Notes under the pieces: generated by a model | What the model saw: the letters and a program-made list of their open reading frames with translations, nothing else | Told to the model about the DNA's origin: nothing | Database searches by the model: none | Sequence record: MH560358 | From: Escherichia virus KFS-EC | Length of the DNA: 64,000 nt | Strand: one strand, 5' to 3' | Shown: piece by piece, positions 38,767 to 60,674 of the stretch | How positions within the stretch are numbered: position 1 is the stretch's first letter | Layout: each line of letters opens with the position of its first letter | Made by a program: the position numbers and the translations under genes

Positions 38767-39239
38767 TTCTCAGCCTTTAATCTTTCTAGTTCTTCTTCCA
38801 GTTCCTTGATCCGTTGGTCACGTTCAAAGTCACGCTGCAACTTAATGGCGAATACTCGTTTAAACTGATTGTAATCATCGATTTTAAACACTTCTTCTTC
38901 GCCATAGCGACGCACAGAAACTTCGTAGTTATTGAAGAATTGTTGCATCATTGCTTCGGATGATAGCTCTGCTGATACCACTTTAAAATATTGATCTTCT
39001 GTAGGCGAAAACCAATTACAAGCATAAAGATAAACCTTTTCATTGTCTGGACACTGGTAAGCCTTACCATCGATTTCAATCACAGAAACATATTCAGGTA
39101 TACTAGATGAATCAATAGCTAAGACTTTAAACGCACGGTCCCCGATAAACTCGGAGATCACACGATTCGCATCACTGGTTGCAAATGCTTTACGCGCTTG
39201 TTCGTTTTTCCACTGATAGGTCATACCAACAACAAACAT
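38763..39239 (-). CDS. repeat-domain family protein (1 copy of W..GKTY.WKD-type domain + coiled coil)
   Basis: shares domain with 39241-40065, 40078-40542 and 44948-46126; internal ATG with GAGG SD. Confidence 0.55.
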   Translation of the reverse strand: MFVVGMTYQWKNEQARKAFATSDANRVISEFIGDRAFKVLAIDSSSIPEYVSVIEIDGKAYQCPDNEKVYLYACNWFSPTEDQYFKVVSAELSSEAMMQQFFNNYEVSVRRYGEEEVFKIDDYNQFKRVFAIKLQRDFERDQRIKELEEELERLKAEK

Positions 39240-39240
39240 A

Positions 39241-40065
39241 TTACCAACCTCGCTCTTTACCAATCAAAAATTCAACTTCACGACGTTTAATGTCTTCTTG
39301 AAGGTCTTTAATCTTCTGGCGATCTTGCATTATTTCGTCCATCTTGTCAAGTGCTGCGATGAAATCATCGAAACGTTCAAAGGTTTTACCTTCATTTGCT
39401 TCGCCAAATTTAACCATTGTCAGGCCGTAACGACTACTAAACAGACGTTTCAACTGTCCAACGATTTTAGAATCAGTGGTTATAACTTCCAATTCTTCTA
39501 CTTCACGAAAGAATTTTCTATCAGAATCAATAAACCAGCTAGTTCCTTTATGGTCTCTATCTTCGGTTGCGCTCATTAGAGTATGGTCTTTACCATCAAT
39601 TTCAATTACATCAATTTGCCCACATGGACTAACATTTTTAACAGTAAAAGGTCTATAATTTATTGCTCGTGCAATAACATAATTAAGGTTAGATACGTTT
39701 TCAGCATAATGGCAGAAGTCGGTCATAGCATTCGCATCTTTCCAAGTATAAGTTTTACCAACTTCCCATTTCTGGGGAACTTCTTCAACTTCACGAAAGA
39801 ATTTTCTATCGAATGGACTAAAGAAATATGTTGCAGTCCAAATGTCTTTTCCTGTAGCAGTTTTCGCCGTATGATAAACACCGTCTAGCTCTATTGCATT
39901 AATCCAACCGTTGCCATCAATCTCGATGATGGTAAATGGCTTGTCACCAATAGCTGCACTAATATCGCTGTTAAGTGGAGAAAGAACACCTTCTCCGTTA
40001 GTAATAAACTCAGTTTTAGCGTTTTCGTCTTTCCAGGTGTAAGTTTTACCAATTTCCCATTTCAT
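39241..40065 (-). CDS. repeat-domain family protein (2 tandem copies of W.GKTYTWKD domain)
   Basis: internal duplication MKWEIGKTYTWKDENA / QKWEVGKTYTWKDANA, each followed by VIEIDG and DRKFFREVEE. Confidence 0.6.
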   Translation of the reverse strand: MKWEIGKTYTWKDENAKTEFITNGEGVLSPLNSDISAAIGDKPFTIIEIDGNGWINAIELDGVYHTAKTATGKDIWTATYFFSPFDRKFFREVEEVPQKWEVGKTYTWKDANAMTDFCHYAENVSNLNYVIARAINYRPFTVKNVSPCGQIDVIEIDGKDHTLMSATEDRDHKGTSWFIDSDRKFFREVEELEVITTDSKIVGQLKRLFSSRYGLTMVKFGEANEGKTFERFDDFIAALDKMDEIMQDRQKIKDLQEDIKRREVEFLIGKERGW

Positions 40066-40077
40066 AATATATTCCCC

Positions 40078-40542
40078 TTAACCGATTTTATCAAGTTCGT
40101 TTAATGCTTTCTCTGCTTCCTGTATAGCTTGCACCCTTTCCGGCATTTTGTCAAGAAAATCTTTCAACTCTTCAAAACTGGAGATATGACGCAAGGCGTT
40201 AGCACCGATAGCCGCATGTGATTTGCATTCAAAGCGGATTTTATAATTATCCATCGCCAACTTGAGAAGATCAATTAATTTAGATTCTTCTGGAATAATA
40301 ATTTCTTCAAATCTGCTACGGTCATGATCCAGAAACCAACAAGATAGACCTACATCGGTTGAACTCATATAAGTTCCATCATGAAGATAAACAGACCGCA
40401 CGTATCCTTTTTTCGCATCAACCGACGCAACTTTAAACGGTAATCTCAGATATTTCAAATAATCAACATCATACCATTTAAAAAATTGGTTTGCATCTTT
40501 TACATCTTTCCACGCATAGGTCTTACCAGCTTCCCATTCCAT
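40078..40542 (-). CDS. repeat-domain family protein (1 copy)
   Basis: MEWEAGKTYAWKD motif; coiled-coil C-terminus; track start GTG. Confidence 0.55.
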   Translation of the reverse strand: MEWEAGKTYAWKDVKDANQFFKWYDVDYLKYLRLPFKVASVDAKKGYVRSVYLHDGTYMSSTDVGLSCWFLDHDRSRFEEIIIPEESKLIDLLKLAMDNYKIRFECKSHAAIGANALRHISSFEELKDFLDKMPERVQAIQEAEKALNELDKIG

Positions 40543-46189: not shown

Positions 46190-46663
46190 CTATCTTAATC
46201 TTTGTATAAATTGTTTCTTATACTTCTTCGTGATCTCTTCTCTTGTATCAGCGTCACAATAATCGAAACCTTCTGCGTCCATAATAGCAAGCATCTCCGC
46301 GCGTGTCAAGCGTGAAAATCGTTTTACTTTATCAACAGCATATTGAGGATGTAAATGATTGTCGGTGTAGTCTCCTTTGATGTAATTAACATAGTTTGTA
46401 GCCCAAACAACGAAATCAGCACCTAAAGCACCAACACCAAACCGTTTAAAGTCTCCGGTCAACGATCCTTCTAGGCGGTTGCAACACGAATGAAGCAATC
46501 CCCTTACGCGGCCTTGCCCTTTACCATCGAGATCGTGGTCGTGGTCAAGATGGTTTTTGCTCATATCCTCAAAAAGTGGCAATTGACAAAGGGGGCAAAT
46601 GCCCCCCTGTTTTTCGAATAGTTCTTGTTTGTACTCTTTAGCACTCTTAGCAGTCAGTAACAT
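46190..46663 (-). CDS. 49: endonuclease VII (Holliday junction resolvase) gp49
   Basis: matches T4 gp49 as recalled (C.LCQ, NHLDHDH.L.G...G.VRGLL...CN); start at ATG with GGAGGGTGA SD. Confidence 0.88.
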   Translation of the reverse strand: MLLTAKSAKEYKQELFEKQGGICPLCQLPLFEDMSKNHLDHDHDLDGKGQGRVRGLLHSCCNRLEGSLTGDFKRFGVGALGADFVVWATNYVNYIKGDYTDNHLHPQYAVDKVKRFSRLTRAEMLAIMDAEGFDYCDADTREEITKKYKKQFIQRLR

Positions 46664-50057: not shown

Positions 50058-50086
50058 AGTATAGGGGATCACCGATCCCCTGTCAA
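50058..50086 (-). promoter_or_regulatory. early promoter with palindromic spacer GGGGATCGGTGATCCCC
   Basis: -35 TTGACA at 50081-50086, -10 TATACT at 50058-50063. Confidence 0.55.
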
Positions 50087-58611: not shown

Positions 58612-59034
58612 TTATTGGTCTACCTTCAAAACAACAGCCGACATTTTACCCGCCAGTCGTTTTGGATTCTCTATAATCATTCGGCAGCATAGACCGTGAT
58701 ATGGCTTACCATCTTCGATTAGATCTACTGTCATCCCGATCCACATGTTACCGTCAGTAATTTCTAATCGATTAGGTCGGTCTTCCATTTTCAGGAAGTC
58801 GAAGATCTCCGGCAAACGAGTTTCTATCTTATTGAATAGTTCCATTGTCTTATGTTCATCGATATGACGATCGGTTAGACGGTCGATCATATGCGGACTA
58901 AAGCGAATGAAAATATACTCACCATAACCATCATTCAAGCACTTTTCTTTGATCTGCGCATTGGTTTTGCGCATTTCGGTTTCGAAGAATCTACGCAGCT
59001 TACTACGGCGAACATGTACGTTAATTGTTTCCAT
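58612..59034 (-). CDS. regB: RegB site-specific endoribonuclease
   Basis: matches T4 RegB as recalled (IRR.KLRR.FE.E, RLEITDGN.W.G.TV, CRM.I.N..RL.GK); start at internal ATG with AAAGGA SD. Confidence 0.85.
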   Translation of the reverse strand: METINVHVRRSKLRRFFETEMRKTNAQIKEKCLNDGYGEYIFIRFSPHMIDRLTDRHIDEHKTMELFNKIETRLPEIFDFLKMEDRPNRLEITDGNMWIGMTVDLIEDGKPYHGLCCRMIIENPKRLAGKMSAVVLKVDQ

Positions 59035-59038
59035 TTTA

Positions 59039-59374
59039 TTATCCTTTCTTAAACAAATTGCGAAGCCAGTATACAAACGGGATTTCTTTAAACTTGAATT
59101 TCTCTATAGTTAATTCTTTAGTAGCAAGATGAATACCATAAGCATCATGTGTCACGATATGCCATTTTCTATAGTCCAAATGTGAACAACCGTCTGGATC
59201 TAGGTTAATAAGAGTTTCTCGCTCACTAGGATTATTTTTCCACAATTTTGTAATAGGATCGCACATAATTCGACCTAGCGTACCATGAATAATCTCACAA
59301 CGGTAAAGTTTTCCAGCAGTGAGATAGGCGCACCCGTCATAGTCGGTATAAACAAACACTTCTTTAACACTCAT
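59039..59374 (-). CDS. DGCSHL-repeat small protein (111 aa)
   Basis: two copies of DG-C-(A/S)-(Y/H)-L motif; paralog of 59677-59871; promoter upstream. Confidence 0.5.
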   Translation of the reverse strand: MSVKEVFVYTDYDGCAYLTAGKLYRCEIIHGTLGRIMCDPITKLWKNNPSERETLINLDPDGCSHLDYRKWHIVTHDAYGIHLATKELTIEKFKFKEIPFVYWLRNLFKKG

Positions 59375-59434
59375 TTTAATAATCCTTTGTTGTTTCGATG
59401 GGGGTATATTACTACCCCCGATCATGTATGTCAA

Positions 59435-59680
59435 CTACTTTTTCAAGATTTTTTTGATTGCATTCCAAAGACCTTTATTTCCAGGTTGTTTTGGTTCTTC
59501 GATCAGTGTCCATGTTCGACCGTCTAAGTGTGCACAATTTTTAAGGCAAATAAAAATCTAGTGTCCCTTATCATCACGGATATAACCACTATTCGCAAAT
59601 CTTTCATGTGGTGTATATTCATACAGTGTATTAGGTGTAATATACTTGCGGTTACTATAAGGTGTCATCACATACATCAT
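59435..59680 (-). pseudogene. paralog of DGCSHL family interrupted by in-frame amber (TAG) codon at 59558-59560
   Basis: hand translation: 40 codons, TAG, then 40 codons (…GYIRDDKGH*IFICLKNCAHLDGRTWTLI…) still aligning with neighbouring paralogs; ATGA-coupled start. Confidence 0.45.
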
Positions 59681-59871
59681 GGTACTAACTCCCAACGATC
59701 ACCGCGAAGATGAGAACATCCACCATCAAGAAGTATTGTAATACGATAACCTATATCATCTTTGATGTAACCGATTGTCGGTGGATTTTCGTCGTCTCGT
59801 GCCGGGGTAAAATCATACATCTTTCCGGGCGTAATATCTTGTCCTTTATTGCTATTTGTATAAACTTGCAT
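59677..59871 (-). CDS. DGCSHL-repeat small protein (64 aa)
   Basis: ATG with AGGAGA SD; LDGGCSHLRGDRW motif. Confidence 0.5.
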   Translation of the reverse strand: MQVYTNSNKGQDITPGKMYDFTPARDDENPPTIGYIKDDIGYRITILLDGGCSHLRGDRWELVP

Positions 59872-59892: not shown

Positions 59893-60591
59893 CTAACCAC
59901 GGGTATAGTGTTCCAGAACAACTGTCAGATGAATATATTCTAATAGATCTTTCCAAAAGTCAACATCTGGTTCTTCCGGCATACCGTTTTTCTTTGCCTC
60001 TTCACGCGCGAGTTTAACACGCTCGTAGAGATCTTTCAATTCTTCCCGCACATTATCAAAGGTTCTTTCTCCTAACTTACACGCTAAAATAGAAGAACGT
60101 CGCTCGAGCGGGAATTGTAGATCACCTGTCTGATAGATTTCAAGTAGCTGATAACCAACACGCAGAGCATGAGAAAGATCTTTCCAGTTACTGAAATACT
60201 TTTCAGATTTAGCTACCTGTTTCTTGAGATAACCAGACAAACCCCACATCCCAACATGATAGAATTTATCGCGATGTGTTCGGATGTATTCCCATTCTCT
60301 GGAGGATTCAATCAACATGTTACTAGGAGCGTGCACCATATCAATAGCGCCGATATCACCTTTACATGCCAGATTGATAAACCGTTTTAGACTGAACATA
60401 TTAACGTCAATGTCGTCTTTGGTGTTCTTGATACCTTGACCGCTAGTGCTTTGGTCATAGTGTTCTTTCATCGATCCTAAGATAATTTCTTTCGCAGTCG
60501 GAACAAAGATACCACGATAATCTTTATCGGAATTTTCAGTATCAAGGCCGTATAAGTGAGATCCGAAAACCATTTTAACCATTGTATGCAT
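59893..60591 (-). CDS. Pol-beta-superfamily nucleotidyltransferase-like protein
   Basis: N-terminal GS...D.D signature (FGSHLYGLDTENSDKDYRG) typical of minimal nucleotidyltransferase fold, followed by helical domain; GAGGG SD. Confidence 0.5.
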   Translation of the reverse strand: MHTMVKMVFGSHLYGLDTENSDKDYRGIFVPTAKEIILGSMKEHYDQSTSGQGIKNTKDDIDVNMFSLKRFINLACKGDIGAIDMVHAPSNMLIESSREWEYIRTHRDKFYHVGMWGLSGYLKKQVAKSEKYFSNWKDLSHALRVGYQLLEIYQTGDLQFPLERRSSILACKLGERTFDNVREELKDLYERVKLAREEAKKNGMPEEPDVDFWKDLLEYIHLTVVLEHYTRG

Positions 60592-60643
60592 AATTAAACC
60601 CTCAGTTGATTAAGAGATTGCATCATATCATCATAAAACGAAA

Positions 60644-60668
60644 AAGCCAACCCTTTTCGGATTGGCTT
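60644..60668 (-). terminator. rho-independent terminator after grcA-like gene
   Basis: AAGCCAA-loop-UUGGCUU hairpin followed by U-rich tract. Confidence 0.55.
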
Positions 60669-60674
60669 AAAAAT

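Follow-up and report, generated by a model that had tools for sequence, protein, structure and literature searches.

A nonsense codon halfway through a small phage gene, followed by a second half that still reads as coding sequence, may be looked at in several ways: the gene may have been broken very recently, the phage may be propagated on a host that suppresses the stop, or the stop may be read through in a regulated manner. The original prediction left these three options standing side by side for the middle gene of a tandem trio of small paralogs in Escherichia virus KFS-EC (record MH560358). The question addressed here is which of them best accounts for the amber codon, given the state of the same gene in related phages and the state of the other genes around it. 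The analysis covers 64,000 nucleotides of the genome of ~165 kb, and this entire stretch is referred to as the window.

The trio between nrdC.11 and regB

KFS-EC is a Krischvirus, i.e. an RB49-like T4-type coliphage, in which the trio sits between nrdC.11 and regB (Table 1). The 2-kb trio region matches 57 phage records at 93-98.6% nucleotide identity (98.6% to both AV108 and JSE), all of them being Krischvirus-type coliphages or Shigella phages with unchanged gene order; likewise, the order nrdC.11-trio-regB is the same in every related contig. The orthologs in RB49, Phi1, JSE, GEC-3S and AV108 comprise the same three genes, ORF097, ORF096 and ORF095, in the same order, with 94-99% nucleotide identity to the main allele group, and in RB49 all three are annotated as hypothetical proteins. 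The middle gene had been described as ATGA-coupled to its upstream neighbour, and the overlap is indeed present at 59677-59680, where the TGA stop of the 64-aa upstream paralog shares its letters with the ATG of the middle gene. A 60-nt spacer separates the middle from the downstream paralog, and regB starts 4 nt past the latter. Judging from the spacing, nrdC.11 is probably co-transcribed with the first two paralogs.

Table 1. Features of the trio locus in the KFS-EC window
Feature	Position	Strand	Basis
nrdC.11 homolog (RlaP-type nucleotidyltransferase), upstream flank	59893-60591	minus	PF10127 on orthologs
Upstream paralog, RB49 ORF097 homolog, 64 aa, intact	59677-59871	minus	
Middle paralog, RB49 ORF096 homolog (phrog_15978), 81 codons, interrupted at codon 41	59435-59680	minus	
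Premature amber codon TAG in the middle paralog	59558-59560	minus	
40 codons before the amber, still translated (MMYV...DDKGH)	59561-59680	minus	
40 codons after the amber, lost to translation	59438-59557	minus	
Natural stop TAG of the middle paralog (context TAGT)	59435-59437	minus	
PeSL-type cassette between the middle and downstream paralogs	59396-59434	minus	sequence motifs
Downstream paralog, RB49 ORF095 homolog, 111 aa, intact	59039-59374	minus	
regB (RegB endoribonuclease), downstream flank	58612-59034	minus	PF10715 on orthologs

The flanks of the trio carry some doubtful names in public records. The nrdC.11 homolog is called glutaredoxin or thioredoxin in AV108, FL38 and ELT4; these redoxin names appear to be annotation errors, the recorded Pfam match of the orthologs being RlaP (PF10127). 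At the other end, several records, among them GenBank MT478991 (L007), MK962753 (L009) and MW748999 (L010), label the ORF095 homolog as "(putative) endoribonuclease" or "RegB". In the related contigs, the only gene with a recorded REGB_T4 (PF10715) match is the 140-aa neighbour and not the ORF095 homolog, whose label seems to have been carried over wrongly from that neighbour. A further peculiarity lies upstream, where nrdC.11 and the glycyl-radical gene are separated by a 197-aa NUMOD4/HNH homing endonuclease in AV108 (L012:28953-29546) and some other relatives, and by a different homing endonuclease in JSE; the window has there a mere 83-nt spacer (60592-60674) with a terminator-like hairpin at 60668-60644.

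The three small genes are paralogs. In BLASTP, with Gln restored at codon 41, the 64-aa and 81-aa proteins share 40% identity (E 6e-13), and the 111-aa protein matches the 64-aa one at E 1e-4 and the 81-aa one at E 2e-3. Two protein families of unknown function tie them together as well: phrog_6261 matches the 64-aa (1.3e-28), 111-aa (1.1e-37) and 81-aa (6.4e-6) proteins, and phrog_15978 matches the 81-aa (2.3e-60) and 64-aa (1e-7) ones. An HMM built from the family picks out exactly the three trio genes within the 64-kb window. The downstream paralog consists of the domain plus a C-terminal tail.

Paralogy had originally been read from a shared D-G-C-(S/A)-H-L motif. The relationship itself stands, and the motif turns out to be looser than described: the middle copy reads N-C-A-H-L, the second allele group of the middle gene reads CAYLDD, and GCVF or GCVY is found in alternative alleles of the third gene. 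Among 48 distant relatives, Tyr and Trp never vary and Lys, Gly and Cys hardly do so, whereas the His of the motif is replaced by Tyr or Phe even in close alleles. With a variable His, and with conservation limited to Tyr and Trp and, nearly so, Cys, Lys and Gly, the motif seems to mark a fold and not a metal site. The idea of D-G-C-S-H-L as a metal-binding motif was dropped on account of the unconserved His.

No Pfam family matches any of the three proteins, no PDB chain was matched by the family profile even at E 10, and a BFVD search returned uncharacterised viral proteins only. The profile search retrieved 152 representative clusters at E <= 1e-3, most of them stand-alone proteins of 58-70 aa, a few with two to three copies of the domain or with an unrelated extension. 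When 48 sequences (the window copy and 47 relatives) were re-scanned, nearly all fell into phrog_6261 or phrog_15978. Fusions to Z-alpha and DUF3850 among the long relatives were considered as a clue to function and set aside as too thin, there being one member of each. The AlphaFold2 model of the 64-aa paralog (mean pLDDT 86) resembles an SH3-like beta barrel; the trio is predicted to represent a phage-specific domain of ~60 aa with such a fold.

Two observations on gene families in the window may be added. The third paralog (59039-59374; proteins P0002-P0004 and P0006) exists in two allele types that are only ~40% identical, yet the C-terminal tail of 20 residues (KFKFKEIPFVYWLRNLFKKG), encoded immediately before regB, is the same in both, which points to a replaced cassette whose recombination boundary would lie within the 3' end of the gene. 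Elsewhere, two AV108 genes (175 aa and 86 aa) without ortholog in the window match several adjacent places on the minus strand at ~39045-40542 with 25-35% identity, which suggests another tandem family of divergent paralogs in that region.

The amber codon and its counterpart in related phages

Translated in one frame, the middle gene (59435-59680) gives 40 residues, TAG, another 40 residues and a final TAG, just as had been reported from the letters alone. On the coding strand the amber is embedded in CAC TAG ATT. The mutated base is plus-strand position 59560, an A in the window and a G in the relatives (T versus C on the coding strand), and in the alignment AV108, JSE, RB49 and Phi1 all read CAG at this point. 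The comparison was extended to 30 related contigs, representing 25 distinct sequences from GenBank phages and from ENA, Logan and NCBI assemblies; among these 30 the homologous codon is CAG in 25, AAA in four and GAA in one, and in none is it a stop. The gene measures 246 nt in most of them and 267-270 nt in three indel variants.

The closest copies, in the Logan assemblies L020 and L022, are a single base apart from the window gene, namely the amber one, and with all 30 contigs considered, no other position of the gene is private to the window. The 40 codons behind the amber specify a protein sequence identical to that of intact orthologs. With respect to the RB49-type ORF096 orthologs, the change from CAG to TAG is found in the window copy only, all other copies examined being open. 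The exact protein with Gln at position 41 is present on 30 contigs and belongs to a cluster of 85 distinct members; of the 15 members listed from this cluster, nearly all are 81 aa long. The 40-aa truncated product, for its part, is recorded only as KFS-EC gp248 (KNU01_gp248, YP_010097382.1/AXF53396.1), to which a protein-cluster look-up led; a look-up for contigs encoding this product or the nrdC.11 protein of the window gave no match. Exact-pattern scans for either the CAG or the TAG allele gave no match in IMG/VR viral contigs or JGI metagenome contigs, and a literature search on amber or nonsense alleles in Krischvirus returned nothing relevant.

That the half behind the stop still resembles the paralogs was part of the original prediction, which also named shuffled controls as the test; with these, the observed scores of the 40 residues against the two intact paralogs were reached by only 1 of 5000 and 7 of 5000 shuffles. 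Moreover, the two halves of the broken gene match the family HMM separately (2.9e-17 and 2.9e-11). Two allele groups of the middle gene exist, differing by ~22% in nucleotide sequence, and between the two clades codons 1-40 have a dN/dS of 0.16 and codons 42-81 one of 0.22; by these ratios, purifying selection acts on either half of the gene in the relatives.

The comparative evidence fits the first of the three options, very recent pseudogenisation: a single private C to T change, nothing else private in the gene, and intact relatives. Judged from the alignments, the TAG is most likely a private transition from CAG (Gln) to TAG, an ordinary strain-specific knock-out with no signal of recoding.

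As to the consequences for the protein, codon 41 aligns with Arg-43 of the 64-aa paralog, which in the model lies at the start of strand 3. Mapped onto the same model, the codons behind the amber cover strands 3-5 of the barrel together with the conserved Cys and Trp. The 40-residue fragment would hence be unable to form the barrel, and the allele would be effectively null in a non-suppressing host, because what remains lacks these three strands and both conserved residues.

Alternative accounts of the stop

Whether the amber stands alone bears on most of the alternatives, and it was approached through AV108. The 129 annotated genes of its syntenic 66 kb were translated and compared with the window: 122 are full length in one frame, four are partial or divergent, and three are absent (two lie outside the window and one is an HNH homing endonuclease). 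An in-frame stop was found in exactly one of the 129, the middle paralog. A stop-to-stop scan for nonsense differences had given 21 matches, all of which, except the amber gene, fall in non-coding alternative frames or 5' leaders; redone with the annotated AV108 genes, it left the middle paralog alone. TAG is the normal terminator of 10 of the 112 window genes, and ARAGORN detected no tRNA gene, hence no suppressor tRNA, in the 64-kb window.

One competitor is that the phage really reads CAG and has an intact gene, the TAG being a sequencing or consensus error, or else a minority variant of the stock called as consensus. In favour of this, a single base separates the window gene from an otherwise identical gene in two assemblies; in addition, no independent assembly with TAG came to light, the pattern scans of viral and metagenome contigs being empty, and only a single genome has the truncated product on record. 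Against this stand the 122 other genes compared at full length over 64 kb, which have neither nonsense nor frameshift defects. Errors thus seem to be rare and the assembly clean, because no other gene in the window is broken, and assembly artefacts do not typically take the form of a substitution away from homopolymers. An error in the record is therefore regarded as rather unlikely.

A second alternative accepts the mutation as real and gives it a cause. By analogy, the nonsense change Q41* could be an escape from a defence system of the isolation host (E. coli O157:H7 or similar) which senses the middle SH3-like protein, so that the knock-out would have been selected. The model for such a scenario is the W43* change in Gp54 of phage Bas11, an escape mutation from CapRelSJ46 (PMC11578894). 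Gp54 (PDB 9axb), the trigger of CapRelSJ46, is a small beta barrel, similar in structure to the predicted trio domain but unrelated to it: identity to the trio protein is 6%, and no sequence homology of the family to Gp54 was found, the family profile matching no PDB chain at E 10. Should the gene indeed have been lost in this way, the normal function would be left to the two intact paralogs, and the scattered independent lesions of the middle gene elsewhere (see below) would reflect the same pressure. Such an escape is quite improbable.

Still less probable, in fact very much so, is a conditional amber allele kept on a supE (glnV44) host, where UAG would be read as Gln and the mutation would be nearly silent. 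The change from CAG to TAG is exactly the one that supE reverses, and the next base is an A, which in this position reportedly favours the suppression of amber codons. Krischviruses are sometimes grown on supE44 strains, both XL1-Blue and DH5alpha being of this genotype. The record of the Krischvirus JK32 states growth on XL1-Blue, and DH5alpha is among the strains in the study of RB49 and phi1 (PMC2839356). The 64 kb, however, contain only one such amber and no suppressor tRNA. KFS-EC, furthermore, is described as a phage of E. coli O157:H7, a host that is not known to carry a suppressor. The classical amber mutations of the T-even phages offer a useful parallel, since there, too, a single change from CAG to TAG truncates a protein and is in principle supE-suppressible to the wild-type residue. 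Those mutations, however, were selected in essential genes as conditional lethals, whereas the KFS-EC amber lies in an apparently dispensable ORFan, with nothing that points to selection or to a suppressor host.

Programmed read-through or reassignment, in which deliberate translation through the stop would yield two products or TAG would stand for an amino acid, has its sole support in the coding signal kept downstream of the stop and is next to inconceivable in view of the absence of a stop at the homologous codon in all 30 relatives, of an in-frame TAG in any other gene of the window and of any tRNA in its 64 kb, as well as of the use of TAG as terminator by 10 of 112 genes, including nrdC.11 and the middle paralog itself. 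As far as the sequence data reach, both code reassignment and the regulated read-through put forward originally are rejected.

Probable loss of an apparently dispensable early gene

A real and recent mutation from CAG to TAG, private to the strain or to the stock and inactivating a dispensable early ORFan, is held here to be the probable explanation, with good confidence. The ancestor would have had an intact trio of small early genes, ORF097-ORF096-ORF095, between nrdC.11 and regB. In one genome, codon 41 of the middle gene, CAG (Gln), would then have become TAG by a single C to T transition, and in an ordinary, non-suppressing host translation would end after 40 residues. The coding signal behind the stop would survive because the gene was intact until very recently, the lesion being young, and not because the stop is decoded. 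The mutation may have arisen during isolation and passage.

Such a loss would be tolerated since, as the surroundings hint, the middle gene is part of a hyperplastic region, which is populated by non-essential ORFans. Between the middle and the downstream paralog lies a cassette of the PeSL type. PeSLs (promoter-early stem-loops) were described in RB49 and phi1 (Arbiol et al. 2010, PMC2839356), where hyperplastic regions with many non-essential ORFans are enriched in these cassettes, which mediate the shuffling of the ORFans (PMC2839356). The cassette in the window is made up of a TTGACA -35 box (59434-59429), a TAATAT -10 box (59411-59406) and a GGGGGTA/TACCCCC stem-loop (59424-59396); behind it come the Shine-Dalgarno sequence and the start codon (ATG) of the third paralog. 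The promoter, with 17 nt between the boxes, has 10 of 12 consensus matches; the stem-loop has 7+4 pairs and a z-score of -2.4, the hairpin being placed between the two boxes. On the gene strand of the window, four PeSL-like motifs were counted versus 0.02 expected by chance. Further motifs of this kind (TTGACA plus a G-tract/C-tract hairpin) are found on the minus strand at 50086, 10494 and 2638 and on the plus strand at 46583, those at 50086 and 2638 being nearly identical to each other (TTGACAGGGGATCGGYGATCCCCTATACTA).

The likeness to the cassettes of RB49 and phi1 resides in an intergenic sigma-70 consensus promoter with a GGGG...CCCC stem-loop between -35 and -10, flanking small ORFans. 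The trio differs in having one PeSL only, between its second and third genes, whose activity is predicted from sequence, and the paper on RB49 and phi1 (PMC2839356) makes no mention of ORF095, ORF096 or ORF097. By its motifs, the cassette would provide the third paralog and regB with a promoter of their own, so that little polar effect of the premature stop would be expected. In addition, because a PeSL adjoins the middle gene and PeSLs mark hyperplastic regions of non-essential ORFans, we infer that the trio sits at a place where gene loss is tolerated.

Tolerance of gene loss at the locus is consistent with other lesions of the middle gene elsewhere. On one Logan contig (L033:1501-1656, SRR25448217), one nucleotide is missing from GATAAGGG, 8 nt before the position of the window's TAG, and the product is 51 aa long. 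Another 51-aa protein, P0185, from a 745-nt ENA contig, has a frameshift that, deduced from the protein sequence only, fits a shortening of the A5 run in CTTAAAAATTGT by one A. Both truncations may be artefacts, as they are on short contigs or near contig ends. Towards the end of the gene, the window has a run of seven A (59445-59451), which is A8 in JSE (L002) and in the ENA contig L029; there, the +1 frameshift exchanges the last four residues for a 12-residue tail, and the gene is annotated with 89 aa. This tract is either prone to slippage or subject to a recurrent sequencing error. In L024, a 7-codon in-frame duplication is found upstream of codon 41, which is itself CAG. Lastly, an ENA scaffold (L034:45-296, ERZ16268176 scaffold_28569) encodes the 83-aa protein P0011, which joins an N-terminal half of the ORF097 type to a C-terminal half of the ORF096 type exactly at the shared GATGATA (GYI-K/R-DD) stretch and so makes one gene out of two paralogs, the region corresponding to window positions 59435-59871. 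Lying 45 nt from the scaffold end, this fusion is either a real product of unequal recombination or an assembly chimera. More generally, some of the lesions in other assemblies may be assembly artefacts.

The loss in KFS-EC is probably neutral or weakly selected. It is not necessarily free of cost, because the relatives keep the gene under purifying selection.

The gene family, its position and the PeSL cassette had already been described or annotated, and a nonsense allele in one isolate is an ordinary finding, of very little importance beyond annotation. For the latter it does matter: what is annotated as a 40-aa gene represents the first half of an 81-aa gene that has been broken, and the record should mark it as a disrupted or suppressible allele, not as a gene in its own right. 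The case may also serve as a negative control for recoding scans, for it illustrates that coding signal behind a stop can mean a one-base mutation private to a strain. As regards the phage, the natural null allele might be used as a ready-made knock-out of the middle paralog, and the trio as a whole belongs to a wider, uncharacterised phage-domain family of 152 representative clusters, predicted to be SH3-like.
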